NCBI GenBank assembly: GCA_965221345.1
Contig: CBDCSD010000001.1
Location: 1,062,455 to 1,126,454 of the forward strand
DNA: 64,000 nucleotides
Direction: 5' to 3'
DNA from: Caldilineaceae bacterium
Lineage (GTDB): Bacteria > Chloroflexota > Anaerolineae > Caldilineales > Caldilineaceae
In this document: positions 3,011 through 62,717 of the stretch, piece by piece
Layout: each line of letters opens with the position of its first letter
How positions within the stretch are numbered: position 1 is the first letter of the stretch
Program-made: the position numbers and the translations under genes
Notes under the pieces: generated by a model
Database searches by the model: none
Seen by the model: only the letters and a program-made list of their open reading frames with translations
Told to the model about the DNA's origin: nothing

Positions 3011-3127
3011 TTTTTCCTGGATCGGTCTTCTCCGCATTGCCAATGGCTTCTTGTCGATCTTCGCATAGCCTAATCTATTGCAGATCATCGCGGGATTCTG
3101 CTCTCTGCGGCGGCCCTTCGCTCGTTC

Positions 3128-3225
3128 TGACCACTGACCACTGACCACTGACCACTGACCACTGACCACTGACCACTGACCACTGACCACTGACCACTGA
3201 CCACTGACCACTGACCACTGACCAC
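3128..3225. repeat. Perfect heptanucleotide tandem repeat (TGACCAC)x14
   Basis: Counted directly: 14 uninterrupted 7-nt units from 3128 to 3225. The tract lies 5 nt beyond the stop codon of the oxidoreductase gene (3231) and about 120 nt upstream of the HlyD-like start. Confidence 0.97.
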
Positions 3226-3230
3226 TGGGT

Positions 3231-4337
3231 CTACACGGTCTCCTCGGGTCTGACCTCGCGTCCCTCTTGCGCCGACAACTGCGCCGCGCGACAGAACCGG
3301 AGTACCTCCTTACCCTCCTCACCGCTCAGCGGCGACTGCCGTCCCTCCGCAATGGCGTCAACGAAGTCGTGTACGCCGGCCACGAAACTGGTTCCCCAAT
3401 CCGAGTCTACCTCGGGAAACTGCGTGGTCTTGCCGTCCCGGTACATCTCCAACGCCGGTCTGTCCAGCAGCATCGAGGTACAGCGGTTCACCCAGATGAA
3501 GCCGTGCGAGCCGGTCAACTCGACCCACTCGTCTTCAGGGCGTCCGTACTTGGTTGGAACCAGCATGTCGTCGGAGGTGACTGCTTCGTAGGAGCCGTAC
3601 TTTTCGCCGTTCCGGTATTTCCAGATGACGACCGCCGGGCTGTCAAGCATCCAACCATGTTGTATCGGGCGGTGTGTGATCCAGGCGAACACCTTTTCCA
3701 CCGCGCCCAAGTACCACCGGGCAATCGAAAAGAGATGGTATCCATAATCTAGGATGACCCGACCTCCGCCGCTCTGGGCAGGGTCGAACCGCCATACCCA
3801 GCGCCTGTAGGGTATCTCCCAGTCCTCTCCCGTGGTACCCTGCACGCACTTGATGCGTATCGAAAGCGGCTCGCCAATCGCACCGGCGTCGAGAAGCTGC
3901 TTGGCCTTGACCAGCGGCGGATAAAAGCGAAAGTTTTCAAACACGCGCATCAACTTGCCCGCACGCTGCGCAGCTTCGATAATCGCATCGCACTCGGCAA
4001 CGCTGATCGCCATCGGCTTCTGGATGGAGACGTGCTTGCCTGCCTCCAGCGCCGCAATGCCCATCTCCGCATGAAGATGGTGGGGCGTGATCACCTCCAC
4101 CGCATCCACTTCGGGGTCGGCGAGCAGATGCCGGTAGTCGGTGTACGTCTTCCCAACCTGCCACTCGGAGGCGCGCCGCTGCAGCAGCGCCTCGTCCACA
4201 TCGCAGACGGCGTGAAGTTCCGCTTTGGGATTGTCCTTGTAGCCGAGGTAGTGCAGGTCGGTGATGGCGCCGGCGCCGATGAAGCCTACGCGCAGCTTCT
4301 TCGTGCCGCCGCGGAGGCGTTGCGCGCCGCCGCTCAT
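3231..4337 (-). CDS. Gfo/Idh/MocA family oxidoreductase
   Basis: N-terminal Rossmann motif LRVGFIGAGAI, then EVDAVEVITPHHLHAEMGIAALEAGKHVSIQKPMA, typical of the family. Its ATG overlaps the upstream stop in an ATGA junction at 4334-4337. Confidence 0.9.
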   Translation of the reverse strand: MSGGAQRLRGGTKKLRVGFIGAGAITDLHYLGYKDNPKAELHAVCDVDEALLQRRASEWQVGKTYTDYRHLLADPEVDAVEVITPHHLHAEMGIAALEAGKHVSIQKPMAISVAECDAIIEAAQRAGKLMRVFENFRFYPPLVKAKQLLDAGAIGEPLSIRIKCVQGTTGEDWEIPYRRWVWRFDPAQSGGGRVILDYGYHLFSIARWYLGAVEKVFAWITHRPIQHGWMLDSPAVVIWKYRNGEKYGSYEAVTSDDMLVPTKYGRPEDEWVELTGSHGFIWVNRCTSMLLDRPALEMYRDGKTTQFPEVDSDWGTSFVAGVHDFVDAIAEGRQSPLSGEEGKEVLRFCRAAQLSAQEGREVRPEETV

Positions 4338-29676: not shown

Positions 29677-29955
29677 CCTATGGAGTGTAAAGTTGAAAAC
29701 AGTTTATCCCTCAATGCCGCTCATCGCAACCCCTTGAACGAGCTTCTCCTTCCAGAACTCTGTCGCGATCAAGCCGGCAATAGCACGATGATCGAGGCAG
29801 ACTGGCCAAGTAAAAAAATGTCAGGAAGGAGCGGCAAACCAAGTGAAGTTTGAGCTATAGACCGGCTCTAGGAAGTTGCGACGGTAACCGCGACCCATGG
29901 TATGGCCCCCCCAGTCTGGATTTCAAGCTAGTAAAGAATGGACTGTAGAGATGTC

Positions 29956-30426
29956 CAGGGCAATTGCATCAAATTGGGACAAACCCACGTGAGGCTGCCT
30001 GAATCGGGTAGGGGCGCCCCTTGTGGGCGCCCTTCTCAGGGCAAAACGCCGAGAGAAGACAATAGGTAGGGGCACCCCTTGTGGGTGCCCTTTACAAGGC
30101 AAAACGCCGAGAGAAGACAATAGGTAGGGGCACCCCTTGTGGGTGCCCTTTACAAGGCAAAACGCCGAGAGAAGACAATAGGTAGGGGCACCCCTTGTGA
30201 GTGCCCTTTACAAGGCAAAACGCCGAGAGAAGACAATAGGTAGGGGCACCCCTTGTGGGTGCCCTTCTCTAGGCATAGCGCCGAGAGAAGACAATAGGTA
30301 GGGGGCACCCCTTGTGGGTGCCCTTCTCTAGGCAAAACGCCGAGAGAAGACAATAGGTAGGGGGCACCCCTTGTGGGTGCCCTTCGTCGGCTATTTTGGC
30401 GTCCGAATTAAGATGCGTTTGCCCTG
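29956..30426 (+). mobile_element. Inverted-repeat-bounded non-coding element (MITE-like), copy 1, containing a tandem array
   Basis: Left arm CAGGGCAATTGCATCAAATTGGGAC. The reverse complement of the right arm is CAGGGCAAACGCATCTTAATTCGGAC, an imperfect roughly 26-nt inverted repeat. Both arms recur at 56736-56990. The element is flanked by GTAGAGATGTCC and GTAGAGGTGTCC. Confidence 0.6.
30007..30385 (+). repeat. Tandem array: six 58-59-bp units plus a partial seventh, each with an 8-bp-stem hairpin
   Basis: Unit starts (GGTAGGGG) at 30007, 30065, 30123, 30181, 30239, 30297 and 30356. Each unit contains GGGCACCC-CTTGT-GGGTGCCC followed by (T/C)..GGCAAAACGCCGAGAGAAGACAATA. Confidence 0.95.
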
Positions 30427-30510
30427 TAGAGGTGTCCCGGCACCATTGACCAGGTCCGATTTACGCGGTATAAATGGGGCAATCCCTGCATGAATGAGAA
30501 GGAGATCGGT

Positions 30511-55073: not shown

Positions 55074-56282
55074 TCACTCTTCGCTTCGCACCCGCCCCAC
55101 TGCGTCCCACAAGGCCGCAGCCATATACTCGTTCTCCTCCTCCTTCATGAGCGGGTGCAAGGCCATACAAAATAAGCGCGCGCTGAGTTCATCGGAGTCG
55201 GGCAGTTCCTGGCCGGCAGTCTGCTCACGAAGGAACGTTGAATCCGCATAGACCGCACGGTTGTAGACCCCGCACCCCACCCCGTGTTCTTCATTCATTA
55301 TCTGCATGAGACGGTCGCGCTTCTCCCCGGCCCATTCGCGCGGCACCAGCATCGTGTACAGGTAATAGGTATGTTCATAGCCGGGCGGCTCGTAAGGCAG
55401 CGTCAGTTCGGGAATGCCCCTCAGCAGTTCGTCCCGCTCTTTGGCCGCCTTCACCCGTTGCGCGGTCATCTCGTCAAGACGCCGCAGTTGCACCAGGCCG
55501 ACCGCCGCCTGCACCTTGGTAATCTTGTAATTCGTGCCCCAGCCGTCATGCGCCGATCCAAACTGCCGGATGCCGCGCAACTTGACGGCCATCTCCGCGT
55601 CATCTGTGGTGACAGCCCCGCCTTCGCCCAGCGTGGTCATCAGCTTCATCGTGTGGAAACTGAAAACCGTCATCCAGCCCTTTGCGCCGATCTTGGTACC
55701 TTTGTAACCGCCGGCGCCGGCGCGGGCCGCGTCCCCAACCACCTTGAGTGGGCCATGCTGTGGGTGGGGATGGCGCTCCGCAATCTCCTGCAAAGCATCC
55801 ATGTCCGCCGACAGCCCGTTCATGTGGACGGGGAAGATAGCGCGCGTGCGCGGCGTAATGCGCTTCTCCACGTCTGCCGGGTCCATGTTAAAGGTCCGGG
55901 GATCAACCTCGCACCAGACTACCTGACCGCGCTGTCCGATTACCGCCATCGCCGCCGCCCGGAAGTTGATGGCCGGTACGATCACCTCGTCACCCGGCTC
56001 CAGATCCAGACACATCATTGCCATATCCAGGCCGGTTCCAGCGCCGTTAATCGATATCGCTTCAGCCGCCCCGCAGTACTTGGCAAACCCTTCTTCGAAT
56101 TCCAGGATCTCCGGGCAGATGAAGCCGAAGCCTACCGTAGTAGGATCCATCGAGTCCCGGATCGCCTTGGTGGCAGCTTCCACTTCCTCTTCCGTATACC
56201 ATCCCCCCAGCAGCGGTTCGGCGGGCCAGAACGGCCCCGGTCGTCCCCGGCCGAGAATCTTCTTGCGGCGGCTTTCATCCAT
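55074..56282 (-). CDS. DegT/DnrJ/EryC1/StrS family aminotransferase (sugar aminotransferase/dehydratase type)
   Basis: INGAGTGLDMAMMCLDLEPGDEVIVPAINF and FSFHTMKLMTTLGEGGAVTT (PLP lysine context). Confidence 0.82.
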   Translation of the reverse strand: MDESRRKKILGRGRPGPFWPAEPLLGGWYTEEEVEAATKAIRDSMDPTTVGFGFICPEILEFEEGFAKYCGAAEAISINGAGTGLDMAMMCLDLEPGDEVIVPAINFRAAAMAVIGQRGQVVWCEVDPRTFNMDPADVEKRITPRTRAIFPVHMNGLSADMDALQEIAERHPHPQHGPLKVVGDAARAGAGGYKGTKIGAKGWMTVFSFHTMKLMTTLGEGGAVTTDDAEMAVKLRGIRQFGSAHDGWGTNYKITKVQAAVGLVQLRRLDEMTAQRVKAAKERDELLRGIPELTLPYEPPGYEHTYYLYTMLVPREWAGEKRDRLMQIMNEEHGVGCGVYNRAVYADSTFLREQTAGQELPDSDELSARLFCMALHPLMKEEENEYMAAALWDAVGRVRSEE

Positions 56283-56735
56283 GGTTCTGCACTCTCCTTC
56301 TCGCTTTGGTCACGTTCGCCGTGTGCGCGGCATCGAATCATGCCGAGAATCGTCACGTCTTCGACGTCTCCTGCCGGCGCGCAGGCTACGTAGCGCTGTA
56401 GGTCTCACAACGGAACTGCGCGGTCGCCAGCCTTGAGGCGGCAACACGCAATGGCAAGTGATGTTGGTATCCTGCATGGGAGAGGCACCCTCCTCTTCGG
56501 GAAAGAGCCATCAAGGGAATTTGTGGATATTATAAAATATCATTTTCCCCACTCAAAACGCCTGAAATCAGGGGGATCTATCCCAGATTTGTGGGCAAAC
56601 GCTGTCTGAACCAGGATTCTCGGGATTACAGGAATGTCAGGATTGCAGGCCATGGTTCGACTCACGATCAATCTTTCCGTTTCGGCTGAAAAGGCAGATC
56701 GCACCGGCCCAACAATTTTGGATGCACGACCTGCC

Positions 56736-56990
56736 CAGGGCAATTGCATCAAATTGGGACAAAACCATGTGAGGCTGCCTGAATCGAGAAGGGCGCTCAC
56801 AAGGGGCGCCCTTCTCAGGGCATAACGCCTAGTACTGTGCAGATCGTAGTGCGCTATCGCAAATTCCATACGTCTTTGGCGACTGGAGGCCAGTTTCTTG
56901 GCCGGAAAAAGAAGACAATTGGTAGGGGCGCCCCTTGTGGGCGCCCTTTGTCGGCTATTTTGGCGTCCGAATTAAGATGCGTTTGCCCTG
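56736..56990 (+). mobile_element. Inverted-repeat-bounded hairpin element, copy 2 (no tandem array)
   Basis: Same left arm (CAGGGCAATTGCATCAAATTGGGACAAAACCATGTGAGGCTGCCTGAATCG) and same right arm (GTCGGCTATTTTGGCGTCCGAATTAAGATGCGTTTGCCCTG) as copy 1. It holds two GGGCGCCC-type hairpins, one of them inverted, and about 80 nt of unique interior. Confidence 0.6.
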
Positions 56991-57530
56991 AAGACCCCCT
57001 ACCGGCACTTGTCTGAATCGACCATTTGTGCTAAGGTCAGCGCCTGCTGGGCTAGACGGGAACTGTCTTACAACCGCAAGCAGAGCTGCAGCCCACAAGG
57101 ACGAAAACGAAATGTCATTCCGTCACCCGTTCCCGGCGATCCGACCGGCCATTGCCATCACCGAAAGCGACAACAAAATCACCCAACTTGACCTGCCCGA
57201 GCTGCAATGGTGGCCGATTATTCCGACGCTTGGCGACCCTATTCCTGAACCCAAGGGCGAGCGCCCGATGCTGGCATGAGCAGGTGAGAAGAGGCAAGCA
57301 TGGCAGACGGATAGTGGGGGGCGAAGCAGGCGCTGTTGGGGTGGGGCGGTGTGTGAAGAATGAGCGGGGACGGACGGGGGCACGCAAACTTGACAATTTT
57401 AGGAATTCAAGGCAAATTGTCATAATATGAATACAACATTTAATCGAAATACACGCCTTCATTCTTGACTTGTGTATATGGTCCTGTCGTTGTAGATTAT
57501 GACATCTTGAGAAAGGAAGGAAGCAAGGTT

Positions 57531-58067
57531 ATGTCGACAGAAAATCTACAAATTCGTGTCGTTAAGAGTCGCCCCGACATTTTCGAGCAAGTCATTCTAT
57601 TTGTGTTGGACAAAGTTGGGGCTAAACCAAATGTTGGAGAAACGGTTCTCCATAAACTCTTCTATTTTATCGACTTCGACTATTACGAGAAATATGAAGA
57701 GACTCTGATGGGAGAAACGTATGTTAAGAGTAATTATGGGCCAACATCCGTAAGTCTGGTTCGGAAATTGAACAGCATGGAAGAGAAAGGAGAAATCGAA
57801 AAAACGGAGAGAGAATATCATAATTATGTTCAGAGGAAATACCTTATAGCTGGGCACCTGAAGCCACACACTCTGTCAGCCCGCGATGTCGAGCATATTG
57901 AAGGTGTACTGGATCGGCTCTCTGACATGAGCGCTACAGAGATATCTGAGTACTCCCACAATGATACTCCCTGGAAATGCGCTGCGTTCGACCAACCAAT
58001 TCCCTATGAGAGTGTCTTTTACCGCGACGACGTATACTCCGTTAAGGAGTATGACGATGAAATTTGA
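57531..58067 (+). CDS. Panacea (DUF4065) domain protein, SocA-like antitoxin candidate
   Basis: 178 aa. VLHKLFYFIDFDYYEKYEETLMGETYVKSNYGPTSVSL and the C-terminal LSARDVEHIEGVLDRLSDMSATEISEYSHNDTPW fit the DUF4065 pattern. AAGGAAGGAAG upstream. Low GC. Confidence 0.7.
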   Translation: MSTENLQIRVVKSRPDIFEQVILFVLDKVGAKPNVGETVLHKLFYFIDFDYYEKYEETLMGETYVKSNYGPTSVSLVRKLNSMEEKGEIEKTEREYHNYVQRKYLIAGHLKPHTLSARDVEHIEGVLDRLSDMSATEISEYSHNDTPWKCAAFDQPIPYESVFYRDDVYSVKEYDDEI

Positions 58068-58208
58068 AAGGGATCTACATAGCGAATCCAATCGATATTT
58101 CTTGCTTCTACGATTCCAAGGTGCAGCCCGTGTGAAAAGTCTTGGGATCAGATTGAACTATTAAGTAACTATGTCCATGTCTTACTCTTCTACCATTAAG
58201 GGATATTT

Positions 58209-58562
58209 GTGGACAAACTTCAATGCAATGAACTACGTCAATTCACAAGGGATTTCAAGAGACTATCAAAGAAATATCGTTCACTTCCCGATGATCTTGC
58301 TCAATTCATTAAGATTATTTCTGCTGAACCTCCTAAGCCATCTCAACGTGTTAGTATCATTACACAACATGAATCCTTGTGGATCATAAAAGCCCGTTTG
58401 GCATGTACGTATTTGAAGAATAGTGACCTTCGCATCATCTTTGCATATTTTACTCAAGAGCGCAGGGTAGATTTCATTGAACTCTATTTCAAGGGAGACA
58501 AAGACCGCGAAGACAGAGCACGAATCGAAAGGTATTTGCAAGAGCGGCAAGATAACGTTTAG
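58209..58562 (+). CDS. RelE/ParE-superfamily toxin candidate
   Basis: 117 aa, GTG start. FTRDFKRLSKKYRSLPDDLAQFI.. then LRIIFAYFTQERRVDFIELYFKGDKDREDRARIERYL matches the F.K.FKKL.KKYRSL / RVIY...L..IY.K pattern of this toxin family. Confidence 0.65.
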   Translation: MDKLQCNELRQFTRDFKRLSKKYRSLPDDLAQFIKIISAEPPKPSQRVSIITQHESLWIIKARLACTYLKNSDLRIIFAYFTQERRVDFIELYFKGDKDREDRARIERYLQERQDNV

Positions 58563-58599
58563 ACTAAGCACCGCAGTCAAGATATCAACAGACCAGACG

Positions 58600-58633
58600 C
58601 GTCCCGATGGAAACATCGGGACGTTATTCGTTT
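58600..58633 (+). terminator. Rho-independent-type terminator after the toxin gene
   Basis: CGTCCCGATG - GAAA - CATCGGGACG (perfect 10-bp stem, GNRA-like loop) followed by TTATTCGTTT. Confidence 0.65.
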
Positions 58634-58661
58634 CAGCTAACTGATTGCGCCCAGACCAATA

Positions 58662-61600
58662 ATGCCCACCCTCACCCTCAAACCCACGCATAAGCCGGTC
58701 AAATCCTACTACGCCGCGCTCGACCGGTTCGCCCAACTCGGCGTTACGCATGAGAGCGCGGTGCGCGCCGCCTTCCAGACTCTGCTCGAACACTGTGCCC
58801 GCCAGTGTGGCTGGACGCTGGTGCCGGAACACGCCATCAGCCCGCAGCGCAACAAGCGCATTGTCGTCGACGGCGCGCTGATCGACGATTTCCGGCTGAC
58901 GCACGGCTACTGGGAGGCAAAGGACATCGACGACGACCTGCCCACCGAAGTCGAGCGCAAATTCGCGGCCGGCTACCCGCGCGACAACATCCTCTTCCAG
59001 ACGCCGCAGCGGGCGATGCTGTGGCAGAACGGGCGGTTGGCGCTGGACGCCGACCTGACGGACGCGGGGGAGCTGATCGAGACGTTGCAGATGTTCTTCG
59101 GCTACCGCCCGCAGGAGTACGCGGCGTGGGAGGAGGCGGTCGCCCAGTTCAAAGACAGGGTGGCCGACATCGGGAACGGCCTGGCAGAGCTGATCCGGAA
59201 GGAGCGGCAGAGCAACCGCCGCTTCACCGCCGCCTTCGCCGAGTTTCTGGACAAATGCCGCCAGTCGATCAACCCAAATCTGGCCGAGGCCGCGGTCGAG
59301 GAGATGCTGATCCAGCACCTGCTGACCGAGCGGCTCTTCCGCACTGTCTTCAACAACCCGGACTTCACCCGTCGCAACGTCATCGCCAATGAAATAGATA
59401 GCGTGATCAACGCGCTCACCTCGCACTCGTTCAGCCGCGACGAGTTCCTGAAGAGCCTGGACCCCTTCTACGCCGCCATCGAGCGCACGGCGGCGACGAT
59501 CAGCGATTTTTCGCAGAAGCAGCACTTTCTCAACACGGTCTACGAGCAGTTCTTCCAGGGCTATTCGGTCAAGGTGGCGGATACACACGGCATCGTCTAC
59601 ACGCCGCAGCCGATCGTCGATTTCATGGTGAAGAGCGTGGCCGCGATCCTGGAGCGGGAGTTTGGCCGTTCGCTGGCCGACGAGGGCGTTCACATCATCG
59701 ACCCGTTCGTCGGCACCGGCAACTTCATCGTGCGCATGATGCGCGAGATCCCGCGCACTGCGCTGGCGCGCAAATACGCCTCCGAGCTGCACTGCAACGA
59801 GGTGATGCTGCTGCCCTACTACATCGCCAGCATGAATATCGAGCACGAGTACTACGACGCCACCGGCAGGTACGAGCCGTTCGAGCGCATCTGCCTGGTG
59901 GACACGTTCGACCTGGCCGAGGACCGCCAGCTGCCGCTGTTCGCGCCGGAGAACACGCAGCGGGTAGAAAACCAGAAGCGGTTGCCGATGTACGTGGTGA
60001 TCGGCAATCCGCCCTACAACGTGGGGCAGGTGAACGAGAACGACAACAACAAGAACCGTAAGTACCCGACGATGGACAGGCGGGTTGCGGAGACGTATGC
60101 AAAAGCCTCTATGGCGACGAATAAGAATAAACTCTCCGATGCCTACGTAAAGTCAATTCGCTGGGCATCGGATCGGATAGGCAAAGAAGGAGTGGTTGCC
60201 TTCGTGACCAACAATGGGTTTCTCGATAGTATTTCGTTTGATGGGATGCGAAAATACCTCGCCGAGGGCTTCGATGCGATCTACATCTTAGATTTGGGCG
60301 GGAACGTGCGGAAGAATCCGAAGCTGTCAGGCACGACGCACAACGTTTTTGGCATTCAGGTCGGTGTCAGTATCAATTTCCTTATCAAGAAGAGCGGCAA
60401 GGCAGATACACAAACTGGAATGTTCTACGCACGTGTCGATCAGAACTGGCGTAAGGAAGAGAAGCACCGATTTCTCGACGCGAAAGAACAGTACGGCAAT
60501 ATCGACTGGAAGCCGATAACGCCGGATAAGCGGCACACTTGGCTTACCGAGGGACAGCACGCCGAATATGAAAGCTTTATCCCAATTGGAACTAGGGAAG
60601 CGAAGACTGGGAAAGGCGAGGCAATTGATGTGACATTTGAGATTTATAGTCTCGGTGTCAGTACGAACCGTGACGCTTGGGCTCGAAATTTCAATCGCAG
60701 CGCACTTACTGAGAATATGCGTCGGATGATCGATACTTATAACGGACAGGTGTTCAAGTGGGAGCGTCAGACGAGTCCTAGTACAACCGTTGACGACTAT
60801 GTGGTATACGATGACAAAGAGATCAGTTGGAGTAGGGACCTAAAAGCGAAGTTGAAGCGTGGCAGGTTCGCTGAATACGCTGAACACAAGGTCAGGGAAT
60901 CACTTTATCGACCGTTTACAAAGTCACACCTCTACTTTGACCGGGCGATGAACGATATGGTGTATGTCGTCCCGTCCATCTTCCCCTCAATGGATTCCGA
61001 AGAAGAAAATAGAGCTATTTGCATGACTGATAAGGGTTCTGAGAAGCCATTTATGACTTTGATGAGTTGCCAAATTGCTGATTTACATTTGGTGGGTGCA
61101 GGCTGCGGCTCCCAATGCTTCCCCTTCTACACCTACGACGAGGACGGCAGCAATCGCCGCGAAAACATCACCGACTGGGCGCTGGCCCGATTCCGCGCCC
61201 AGTACGGCGACGAGACGATCAGCAAGTGGGACATCTTCCACTACGTCTACGGCCTGCTGCACCATCCCGTTTACCGTGAACGTTACCAGGCCAACTTGAA
61301 GCGCGAGTTGCCGCGCATCCCCTTCGCCCCCGACTTTCGCGCCTTCGCTGCGGCCGGCGCGCGCTTGGCGCAGATCCACGTCGGCTATGAGGAGCAGCCG
61401 CAATACCCGCTCCAACAGATCGAAACGCCGCAGATGGCACTCGACTGGCGCGTCGAGAAGATGCGCCTCTCCAAAGACAAAGCGCAGCTGCGCTACAACG
61501 GCTTCCTGACGCTGGACGGCATCCCCGCCGAAGCGTTCAACTACCGCCTGGGCAACCGCTCAGCGCTGGAGTGGGTGATCGACCAGTACCGCGTCAAGAC

Positions 61601-61778
61601 CGACAAACGCAGCGGCATCGTCAACGACCCCAACCGCGCCGACGAACCGGAGTACATTGTACGCCTGATCGGCAAGGTGATCAGCGTCAGCCTGGAGACG
61701 GTGGCGATTGTAGAGGGTTTGCCGGATTTGGGAATTGAGGACGCAAAAGAGGAGAAGCCCCCCGCCGTCCACGCATAA
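58662..61778 (+). CDS. Single-chain restriction-modification enzyme candidate (Type IIG / Type ISP-like: PD-(D/E)XK-like N-terminus + gamma-class N6-adenine methyltransferase + Type ISP-like C-terminal specificity domain; no helicase)
   Basis: 1038 aa. VVDGAL(x11)YWEAKD gives D70..E85-A-K87. Motif I is IIDPFVGTGNF (about 59699-59725) and motif IV is IGNPPYNV (NPPY at 60006-60017). The C-terminus LPRIPF..VGYEE..YNGFLTLDGIPAEAFNYRLGNRSALEWVIDQYRVKTDKRSGIVNDPN is typical of the Type ISP C-terminal domain. Confidence 0.75.
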   Translation: MPTLTLKPTHKPVKSYYAALDRFAQLGVTHESAVRAAFQTLLEHCARQCGWTLVPEHAISPQRNKRIVVDGALIDDFRLTHGYWEAKDIDDDLPTEVERKFAAGYPRDNILFQTPQRAMLWQNGRLALDADLTDAGELIETLQMFFGYRPQEYAAWEEAVAQFKDRVADIGNGLAELIRKERQSNRRFTAAFAEFLDKCRQSINPNLAEAAVEEMLIQHLLTERLFRTVFNNPDFTRRNVIANEIDSVINALTSHSFSRDEFLKSLDPFYAAIERTAATISDFSQKQHFLNTVYEQFFQGYSVKVADTHGIVYTPQPIVDFMVKSVAAILEREFGRSLADEGVHIIDPFVGTGNFIVRMMREIPRTALARKYASELHCNEVMLLPYYIASMNIEHEYYDATGRYEPFERICLVDTFDLAEDRQLPLFAPENTQRVENQKRLPMYVVIGNPPYNVGQVNENDNNKNRKYPTMDRRVAETYAKASMATNKNKLSDAYVKSIRWASDRIGKEGVVAFVTNNGFLDSISFDGMRKYLAEGFDAIYILDLGGNVRKNPKLSGTTHNVFGIQVGVSINFLIKKSGKADTQTGMFYARVDQNWRKEEKHRFLDAKEQYGNIDWKPITPDKRHTWLTEGQHAEYESFIPIGTREAKTGKGEAIDVTFEIYSLGVSTNRDAWARNFNRSALTENMRRMIDTYNGQVFKWERQTSPSTTVDDYVVYDDKEISWSRDLKAKLKRGRFAEYAEHKVRESLYRPFTKSHLYFDRAMNDMVYVVPSIFPSMDSEEENRAICMTDKGSEKPFMTLMSCQIADLHLVGAGCGSQCFPFYTYDEDGSNRRENITDWALARFRAQYGDETISKWDIFHYVYGLLHHPVYRERYQANLKRELPRIPFAPDFRAFAAAGARLAQIHVGYEEQPQYPLQQIETPQMALDWRVEKMRLSKDKAQLRYNGFLTLDGIPAEAFNYRLGNRSALEWVIDQYRVKTDKRSGIVNDPNRADEPEYIVRLIGKVISVSLETVAIVEGLPDLGIEDAKEEKPPAVHA

Positions 61779-61793
61779 AGGAGAACAACACGA

Positions 61794-62717
61794 ATGAAAC
61801 ACGACGCCAGCAAACATCTCGTCTACCTCAGCGGCGAGATGCTGCCGCCGGATCAGGCCAGGATATCCGTTTTCGACACGGCCGTAACCCTGGGCGATAC
61901 CGTTACCGAGTCGACCCGCACTTTCGGCCACAAACCCTTCAAGCTGGAGCGGCACATCGACCGCCTCTACAAATCGCTCAAGGTCAGCCGCATCAATCCG
62001 GGGCTGTCACCGGCGGAGATGACCGCCATCACTCTCGAAGTCCTGGAGACCAACCTGCCCCACGTGCCGCCACAGGAGGATGTCTGGATCGTGCACAACA
62101 TCTCGCGCGGCATGGGCGCGGCCGCGGCCGACCCCACCCTGCAACGCTCCCCTGCCACCATCATCATCAACACCGCGCCCATGATTCTGAAAGACTGGGC
62201 TGGCTTCTACACCGCCGGCTGTCACGCTGTGACGCCCTTCAGCCGCGCAATCCCCACGCAGTCGCTCGACGCGCGCATCAAGAATCGCAGCCGCCTCGCC
62301 TATACCCTGGCCGAAGCCGAGGTCAAACTGGTCGACCCGCAGGCGCAGAGCATTATTCTGGATACCGATGGCAACGTAACCGAAAACAAGGGCGGCAACT
62401 TCTTCATCTGGGCTGATGGTGTTCTCAAGACGCCCCACGCTCGCGGCGCACTCGCCGGCATCTCCCGCGAGACCGCTCTCGAACTGGCCTGCGAACTGGA
62501 CATTCCCACGCAAATTACCGACTTCCAGCCCTACGACATCTACACAGCCGACGAGGCCTTTTTCACCAGTACGCCCTACTGCATTATGCCGGCCACCAAG
62601 TTCAACGGCCTGCCGGTAGGCGAAGGCGCGGTCGGTCCCATGACCATGCGTCTGCTGCAGGCCTGGAGCGACCTGGTGGGCCTCGATATCGTGGCTCAGG
62701 CCCAAAGTCATTTGTGA
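61794..62717 (+). CDS. Class IV aminotransferase (branched-chain / D-amino-acid aminotransferase family)
   Basis: 307 aa. VFDTAVTLGDTVTESTRTF, LERHIDRLYKS and GGNFFIWADGVLKTP..ALAGISRET. AAAGGAG upstream, 16 nt after the preceding stop. Confidence 0.8.
   Translation: MKHDASKHLVYLSGEMLPPDQARISVFDTAVTLGDTVTESTRTFGHKPFKLERHIDRLYKSLKVSRINPGLSPAEMTAITLEVLETNLPHVPPQEDVWIVHNISRGMGAAAADPTLQRSPATIIINTAPMILKDWAGFYTAGCHAVTPFSRAIPTQSLDARIKNRSRLAYTLAEAEVKLVDPQAQSIILDTDGNVTENKGGNFFIWADGVLKTPHARGALAGISRETALELACELDIPTQITDFQPYDIYTADEAFFTSTPYCIMPATKFNGLPVGEGAVGPMTMRLLQAWSDLVGLDIVAQAQSHL

Follow-up and report, generated by a model that had tools for sequence, protein, structure and literature searches.

The 64,000-nucleotide stretch of a Caldilineaceae genome analysed here (GenBank assembly GCA_965221345.1, contig CBDCSD010000001.1, positions 1,062,455 to 1,126,454; hereafter the window) carries between two aminotransferase genes a plus-strand block with a Panacea antitoxin gene, a gene for a small putative toxin of predicted RelE-superfamily fold, and a gene for a single-chain restriction-modification (RM) enzyme. 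These genes probably represent two self-sufficient modules of known kinds, a toxin-antitoxin (TA) pair and a restriction enzyme, which are historical neighbours in a chromosomal hotspot and do not form a coupled system. A previous sequence-only reading had treated the block as a defence island built on an undescribed three-gene combination, composed either of independent modules or of a coupled TA-RM unit. The claim of an undescribed system did not survive, as the RM enzyme is of the DrdV-type (Type IIL) and the TA pair of the PanAT type, with neither a catalogued unit nor broad co-occurrence of the three genes. Between the two options left by that reading, independent modules fit better than a coupled unit, yet the modules have travelled or persisted together within one lineage. 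The features on which it relied (an inverted-repeat element, an AT-rich segment, two small open reading frames (ORFs) and a 1038-aa ORF) were all recovered, and its three domain calls, namely Panacea, RelE-like and a nuclease-methylase-specificity single chain, were right, the RelE-like one at the level of fold only. The three plus-strand ORFs occupy 57465/57531-58067, 58209-58562 (117 aa) and 58662-61778 (1038 aa). Comparisons draw on 179 fetched genome and metagenome loci, denoted by L-numbers, of which L008 (OZ244843.1) is the closest species representative, with flanks 97% identical to those of the window at the nucleotide level.

The first gene, panA (57531..58067, plus strand), encodes a standalone Panacea-domain protein, the putative antitoxin, of 178 aa when read from an ATG with a strong GGAAGGAAG ribosome-binding site; the mechanically delimited ORF starts at a TTG at 57465 and gives 200 aa. 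PanA matches PF13274 (SocA_Panacea) along the entire profile (positions 1-113/113, E 1.9e-19, 71.1 bits versus a gathering cut-off of 25.7), and no helix-turn-helix (HTH) or other extension was found beyond the Panacea domain. It is 88% identical to PanA of L001 and 63-70% identical to PanA of L002 and L168-L179.

The second gene, a panT-like toxin gene (58209..58562, plus strand), encodes a protein of 117 aa for which Pfam gave no relevant match even at E <= 10. NCBIfam, PADLOC and the PDB (phmmer and a 43-sequence profile) left it unmatched as well, its sole profile match being PHROG 5869 (function not assigned; E 2.6e-4). The family comprises 172 homologues, mostly of 109-117 aa, many of which come from Patescibacteria-type metagenome bins. 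The AlphaFold2 model (pLDDT 91.3, pTM 0.85) is composed of E5-8, H10-22, H26-39, E48-53, E57-64, E74-81, E86-94 and H103-115 (E, strand; H, helix), and the top 50 Foldseek matches of this model in the PDB are all RelE, YafQ, HigB, YoeB or ParE proteins, the best being archaeal RelE 1wmi_A (E 1.1e-4, target-normalised TM 0.77). The protein is thus placed in the RelE superfamily by its modelled fold, and not by membership in any sequence profile. With RelE, YafQ, HigB and YoeB it shares the predicted topology beta-alpha-alpha-beta4-alpha, and its invariant basic and aromatic residues K61, R75, Y93 and K95 lie on the predicted sheet; its partner is Panacea and not RelB, DinJ, HigA or YefM. Invariant positions in the 43-sequence alignment are F12, Y23, L26, D29, P41, K61, C66, L69, R75, Y93 and K95; four of them (K61, R75, Y93 and K95), together with the nearly invariant R63, lie on predicted strands and resemble the Lys/Arg/Tyr set of RelE. 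RelE, YafQ, HigB and YoeB are ribosome-dependent mRNA endonucleases, and ParE is a gyrase poison; a ParE-like activity is possible for the window protein in so far as it is compatible with the modelled fold.

The pairing of the two genes is conserved. The neighbourhoods of ten toxin homologues, 46-79% identical to the window protein, were looked up, and wherever a locus extends upstream of the toxin homologue, the gene directly before it is a Panacea gene. Such adjacency is found in L001, L002, L003-L007, L168-L175 and L177-L179, and L176, a locus of 505 nt, holds the toxin gene alone. An 11-nt overlap of the two genes is frequent (the type of L002 and L168-L179), the antitoxin is an HTH-Panacea protein in the Patescibacteria-type loci L003-L007, and in the window the genes are separated by 141 nt, a gap type also seen in L001 and L175. 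Judged from this gene order, Panacea and toxin genes are a conserved two-gene module with the signature of PanAT systems, in which a Panacea/DUF4065 antitoxin likewise lies beside a small toxin (PMC8832971; PMC10440598). PanAT systems combine Panacea with many toxin folds, including ParE-like and MqsR-like ones, and work alone (PMC8832971), and standalone Panacea has been reported to neutralise its toxin directly (PMC10440598). The window pair differs from those described in that its genes do not overlap and its toxin belongs to a family of ~110-117 aa outside the Pfam, NCBIfam and PDB sequence sets; Kurata et al. 2022 (PMC8832971) list 41 un-annotated toxin clusters, of which this family may be one.

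Two further observations concern relatives of the pair. L168-L172 and L177-L179 hold a GC-ameliorated sister clade (52-55% GC, 11-nt overlap), always placed between the ABC permease and GH106 genes of a rhamnose-type operon, with variable inserts just downstream that encode a 687-aa major facilitator superfamily (MFS) protein in L172, a 978-aa protein without a Pfam match in L179 and a 924-aa protein in L168. In L003-L007 (~2069-2839) the HTH-Panacea and toxin pair lies beside a divergent gene for a DpnI-like methyl-directed restriction endonuclease.

The third gene (58662..61778, plus strand) encodes a single-chain Type IIL RM enzyme of 1038 aa. It aligns collinearly over its full length with DrdV of Deinococcus (PDB 7lo5/7lvv; for 7lo5, E 5.9e-216, residues 14-1021 against 7-1025 of 1029) at moderate identity, and the order of domains is equal: an N-terminal PD-(D/E)xK nuclease, a helical connector, an N6-adenine methyltransferase and a target-recognition domain. 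Pfam recognises ISP_coupler at 162-282, N6_Mtase at 286-521 and Type_ISP_C at 659-1002, and the PADLOC profile REase_MTase_IIG (1024 positions) is matched at 6-1012 with E 5e-245. The D...ExK, FxGxG and NPPY signatures of DrdV are kept, within the intact motifs VVDGALIDD...GYWEAKD, IIDPFVGTGNF and VIGNPPYNV, at the same DrdV positions. PADLOC assigns the RM gene alone; PanA receives weak domain-level matches (E ~1e-3), and the toxin none. DrdV methylates one strand, its nuclease domains are swapped between enzymes bound to separate DNA sites, and enzymes of this type work alone (bioRxiv 10.1101/2021.01.06.425610).

The coupler, methyltransferase and recognition domains are also homologous to their counterparts in LlaGI and LlaBIII, enzymes of Type ISP (E 1e-150 to 1e-164, residues 187-1026). 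The window protein nevertheless differs from these in that it has a DrdV-type nuclease of ~160 aa and is without their N-terminal half composed of an Mrr nuclease and a RecA-type translocase (~580-740 aa), the matches starting at LlaGI/LlaBIII residues 580 and 744. In the ISP-type PADLOC profiles the match does not begin until positions 734 and 744, no helicase or ATPase Pfam domain was found in the enzyme, and a translocase domain is absent from DrdV as well. By its domain content the enzyme is thus assigned to the DrdV type and not to the ISP enzymes.

The RM gene itself is mosaic. A low-GC segment at 60010..61060 (plus strand; residues ~450-800, comprising the late methyltransferase and the core of the recognition domain) has a GC content of 45-52% versus 57-69% in the remainder of the gene, and it agrees with the enzymes of L173 and L002 at 52-84% identity, compared with 82-98% elsewhere except for a C-terminal tail at 63%; the L174 enzyme shows a similar split (84%, then 54%). 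In this recognition region the window enzyme has diverged even from homologues 81% identical to it overall. Because the segment diverges in both composition and identity, it is probably a specificity module that was swapped by recombination, which would alter the specificity of the enzyme.

The location of the block becomes clear from related genomes. Its left native flank is a gene for a DegT/DnrJ/EryC1-family aminotransferase (55074..56282, minus strand; PF01041, E 2.5e-85), the first gene of a minus-strand sugar ATP-binding cassette (ABC) operon, whose product is 84-98% identical to those of the Caldilineaceae metagenome-assembled genomes L008-L021; a scan of genomes with this protein places the window in Caldilineaceae. 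The right flank is a class-IV aminotransferase gene (61794..62717, plus strand; PF01063, E 2.7e-34), the final member of an ancestral plus-strand operon, 83-96% identical in L008, L011-L015 and L019-L021. In L009-L015, L019-L021 and L087 the two genes lie ~9.3-9.8 kb apart, and at least 10 related Caldilineaceae genomes hold at this site a conserved plus-strand sugar-uptake operon of ~8.8 kb. Besides a 266-aa gene and a 335-aa gene it comprises two genes each for permeases and ATPases and one for a binding protein of 726 aa. L008-L021 and L087 have neither the TA nor the RM genes. The site is regarded as a variable hotspot because the relatives hold this operon and the window keeps only ~38 codons of its first gene; by this comparison the variable segment spans ~57225-61776 and has replaced part of the operon, not intergenic filler.

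The proposal of a variable island is therefore borne out by L008 and at least 10 other Caldilineaceae genomes that lack all three genes at the site. The empty site predicted between the two aminotransferase genes was indeed located, but the DegT gene does not lie directly beside the class-IV gene in the relatives, the interval being filled by the ~8.8-kb operon that the window has lost, and a simple insertion between the two genes is for the same reason ruled out. The plus-strand orientation, taken by the sequence-only reading as peculiar to the island, is that of the ancestral operon ending in the class-IV aminotransferase gene. Base composition also marks the segment: GC is 38-44% across 57400-58600 and ~49% across 60000-61000, with ~58-60% in the flanks, and the TA genes have 41.5% GC versus 57.9% for the whole window.

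The edges of the segment preserve remnants of what stood there. Native sequence upstream of the 266-aa gene begins at 56995, and 56995/57018-57224 aligns with the equivalent position in L008-L015 (70-87% nucleotide identity). The 5' remnant of the 266-aa gene (~38 codons, 57112..57225, plus strand) starts with MSFRHPFPAIRP..., resembling MSINHPFPAFRP... of the 266-aa ORF in L011. It is followed at the left edge of the variable segment by what remains, over 55 nt, of the 3' end of a gene for a HicB-like antitoxin (57230..57284, plus strand), 89% identical in nucleotides to the 3' end of an intact 93-aa ORF in L009 that matches PF15919 (HicB_lk_antitox, E 1.4e-10). The 83-aa ORF at 57028-57279 is therefore chimeric, joining ~38 codons of the 5' end of the 266-aa gene to the last ~17 codons of the HicB-like gene; neither it nor the small ORF at 58054-58164 has a family match, and a 521-aa minus-strand ORF at 58281-59846 was dismissed as an antisense artefact of the GC-rich RM gene. 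Homology with the relatives picks up again at 61774-61777, and the class-IV aminotransferase gene begins 15 nt past the RM stop codon. At the same spot L009 carries low-GC cargo of its own, consisting of the HicB-like gene, an AAA_15/AAA_21 ATPase gene and a gene for a 187-aa partner; near the site L010 has an inserted 496-aa ORF that looks transposase-like by eye.

In L008 and L009, 55-62 nt of an RM 5' end survive, broken off at the same point (nt 62) and lying directly upstream of the promoter conserved for the 335-aa gene, so that an RM gene of this kind would have occupied the hotspot previously. The class-IV aminotransferase of the window is without the conserved TTGACA...TATAAT promoter that the operon has in relatives upstream of the 335-aa gene. 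Because that promoter has been lost and the start codon follows 15 nt after the RM stop, the aminotransferase is probably expressed by read-through from the RM gene. Within 57225-61776 there was no sign of an integrase, transposase or tRNA gene, so no mobilisation mechanism is proposed beyond recombination in the flanks.

How firmly the two modules belong together can be judged from their homologues. The toxin and RM genes of the window are 99 nt apart. The three genes also occur together intact elsewhere, in L002, L173 and L174 (long-read contigs), where the TA pair is followed by variable cargo and then by an RM gene 81-84% identical to that of the window. The distance from TA to RM is 3.3 kb in L002 and 5.2 kb in L173 and L174, the cargo includes PIN/DUF433 and HATPase_c_3 plus C5 methylase genes (L173, L174) or DUF4145 and others (L002), and the RM gene of L174 is fragmented. 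Relics extend this record: L001 repeats the window-type TA-RM junction, but its RM gene breaks off after 105 nt, and the TA pair that L172, L177 and L178 carry inside the rhamnose-type operon is followed by an RM relic (nt 49-185), which adds two genomic contexts to the record. In L168, L169-L171, L175 and L179 the TA pair shows no trace of the RM gene, and altogether at least 7 loci have kept it without an RM gene. The breakpoints of the RM 5' relics fall at nt 62 (L008, L009), 105 (L001) and 49-185 (L172, L177, L178), which makes it unlikely that they mark a recombination site at a fixed end of a cassette.

Seen from the RM side, the toxin family occurs in 0 of 80 metagenome loci of RM homologues at 47-73% identity, 56 of which offer at least 1.2 kb of upstream sequence, as searched by tblastn with 121 toxin-family members and by a hidden Markov model. 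Nor do the distant TA homologues L003-L007 have such an RM gene nearby. As far as gene order tells, the TA-RM linkage is genuine, yet it is limited to a single lineage and has been disrupted several times there. A separate case was observed in the unrelated metagenome contig L164 (2423-3410, minus strand), where a DrdV-like RM gene has directly downstream of it another kind of Panacea gene (197 aa) with a RelE/HigB-like ORF of 136 aa, and with an apparent duplicated fragment of the RM 3' end beyond the pair.

Between the toxin and RM genes lies an intrinsic-terminator-like hairpin (58599..58634, plus strand) with an 11-bp stem, a GAAA loop and a T-rich tail, and the intergenic segment has a folding z of -4.8. 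L001, L175 and L176 have kept the hairpin, with compensatory changes in its stem, even though the RM gene is missing after it in L175; since it is kept even there, it is taken as the terminator of the TA operon.

This terminator, the cargo between the modules in L002, L173 and L174, the occurrence of TA without RM, and the absence of the toxin from all 80 RM loci are the reasons for which the modules appear independent. Several points nevertheless weigh against complete independence. The terminator tail is just 37 nt from the RM ATG, and these 37 nt showed neither a promoter-like site nor a Shine-Dalgarno sequence; because so short a space holds no evident promoter, transcription reading through from the TA operon may be what expresses the RM gene, and this would couple the two in a way. 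RM relics beside the TA lineage in three genomic contexts exceed what random clustering of defence genes would give, although these contexts could partly represent rearrangement within one lineage and not independent moves. The unrelated locus L164 pairs different Panacea and RelE-like genes with an RM homologue. The activities assigned to all three window proteins are themselves predictions.

The rival reading is a coupled two-layer cassette, in which defence would fall first to the RM enzyme, backed up by the PanA/RelE-like pair linked to it. When the RM enzyme is blocked or destroyed by a phage, or the cassette is lost, PanA would be inactivated and the freed toxin would stop translation, amounting to abortive infection or addiction. 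The precedent is PrrC, an anticodon nuclease encoded between the hsd genes of the EcoprrI type Ic restriction cassette and silenced by the RM proteins. The window likewise links a toxin gene to an RM locus, PrrC being the model for a back-up toxin that guards an RM system; the window toxin, however, has a dedicated antitoxin and a terminator, and in relatives the linkage is dispensable. Direct adjacency across 99 nt with the same junction in L001, RM genes or relics beside the TA lineage in three contexts, the lack of an evident RM promoter past the terminator, the independent pair abutting a DrdV-like gene in L164, and the proposal by Ernits et al. 2023 that Panacea can serve as a sensor domain (PMC10440598) all speak for such a cassette. 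They are opposed by the conserved terminator, by 3-5 kb of cargo between the modules in L002, L173 and L174, by retention of TA after RM loss in many loci and the fragmented RM gene of L174, by the 0 of 80 more distant RM loci with the toxin family and the more distant TA homologues L003-L007 without such an RM gene, and by the ability of both module types to work alone (bioRxiv 10.1101/2021.01.06.425610; PMC8832971), which together make a coupled cassette rather improbable. It is tempting to speculate further that PanA itself senses RM loss or phage inhibition and releases the toxin, as a guard in a co-inherited cassette analogous to PrrC/EcoprrI; although this version is very doubtful, if it were true, the RM 5' relics beside TA genes would be scars of a formerly obligate partnership.

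Two other explanations dispense with coupling altogether. The TA pair could act mainly as an addiction module that stabilises the hotspot, with no defence role of its own and with RM and cargo genes as hitch-hikers; it borders the variable cargo of L002, L173 and L174 on the left and stands next to the variable inserts of the rhamnose-operon loci (687-aa MFS in L172, 978-aa in L179, 924-aa in L168), and it outlasts its neighbours, as the relics attest. Yet several rhamnose-operon loci (L169, L177) contain no cargo to stabilise, and the pair has no associated mobility genes, so that a purely stabilising role seems unlikely, sequence alone not separating it from a role in defence. The remaining alternative, that the three ORFs are decaying leftovers of an old insertion, draws on the many relics nearby (the truncated 266-aa gene, the HicB 3' relic, and RM relics in relatives) and on the uncoupling of panA and toxin by a 141-nt gap in place of the 11-nt overlap of L002 and L168-L179. 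It is highly improbable given that all three ORFs are full-length (PanA 178/178 aa against L001, toxin 117 aa against homologues P0001-P0003, RM enzyme 1038 aa against 1029 aa of DrdV), that the nuclease and methyltransferase motifs are intact, and that the 141-nt gap type is common to L001 and L175, hence maintained.

Under the preferred reading of two independent modules, standalone PanA would bind and neutralise the RelE-fold toxin encoded downstream, in the manner of type II PanAT pairs, and the freed toxin would most likely cleave mRNA on the ribosome; transcription of the pair would end at its own terminator. The RM polypeptide would recognise an asymmetric site, methylate one strand to mark self DNA, and, once several sites occupied by enzyme have come together, cut unmethylated DNA at a fixed distance, with its recognition region exchanged by recombination. 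TA and RM genes would have been neighbours already in an ancestor of the TA lineage and been inherited or moved together, with cargo later inserted between them, or the RM gene lost, in different genomes. At the site studied here they would have replaced most of the native operon upstream of the class-IV aminotransferase gene, namely the 266-aa gene, the 335-aa gene and the ABC transporter.

The sequence-only reading had the island open with a hairpin element, the second of two copies in the window, and this part of it has to be given up. Copy 2 (56736..56990, plus strand; 56732-56994 by a wider delimitation) does not adjoin the island, since ~230 nt of native sequence with the promoter and the beginning of the 266-aa gene (56995-57224) come between them, and it is absent from L008 at the site and from every other TA/RM locus fetched, so that a role as island boundary or att-like site is ruled out; only a lone hairpin core (L089) was found in the 179 loci. 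As judged from sequence comparison, the element sits in native intergenic DNA and its association with the island is coincidental. It looks like a miniature inverted-repeat transposable element (MITE): copy 2 has imperfect terminal inverted repeats (TIRs) at 56736-56760 and 56965-56990 (21/26 positions match) and two GC-rich hairpins in opposite orientation (cores 56791-56811 and 56926-56946), and folds as a whole into one long hairpin (-127.7 kcal/mol, z = -7.6). Copy 1 (29952-30430) contains seven tandem 58-nt units and is flanked by a 10-bp direct repeat (9/10 match). The two copies share a 5' end (92% identical), a 3' end (94%) and TIRs of 25/26 nt, CAGGGCAATTGCATCAAATTGGGAC and the reverse complement of GTCCGAATTAAGATGCGTTTGCCCTG, and differ in the number and orientation of the internal 58-nt units; the window contains the hairpin core 9 times, where 0.01 occurrences would be expected.

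Other repeats lie near the hairpin element or elsewhere in the window. A single copy of a ~160-169-nt repeat family is found outside the island at 56571..56727. L008 has two inverted copies of it, and it is absent at the site from L009-L013. In L002, L173 and L174 tandem arrays of the 169-bp repeat, 4-11 copies each, stand immediately upstream of the Panacea gene (L002 3829-5263; L173 8664-9253; L174 7429-9263), with near-perfect units and 72% identity. Rfam gave nothing credible across 56200-58700, the best matches, SprD and MicX, being far below gathering scores, and on that account neither the hairpin element nor the 160-nt unit is considered a known RNA any longer. Far from the island, at 3113-3245, the window has a perfect 7-nt tandem repeat of CTGACCA with ~15 copies.

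Nothing here would surprise a specialist. What emerges is a well-resolved chromosomal defence hotspot in which known modules take the place of metabolic genes and are gained and lost from one close relative to the next. A widespread family of ~115 aa without profile annotation, represented by 172 homologues, many of them in Patescibacteria, gains a predicted RelE fold and a conserved Panacea partner, and a DrdV-type enzyme with a seemingly swapped, compositionally distinct recognition module may prove useful for specificity engineering. The recurrent TA-RM adjacency, together with the relics that accompany it, offers a testable case for the question of whether TA pairs guard restriction systems or accompany them.

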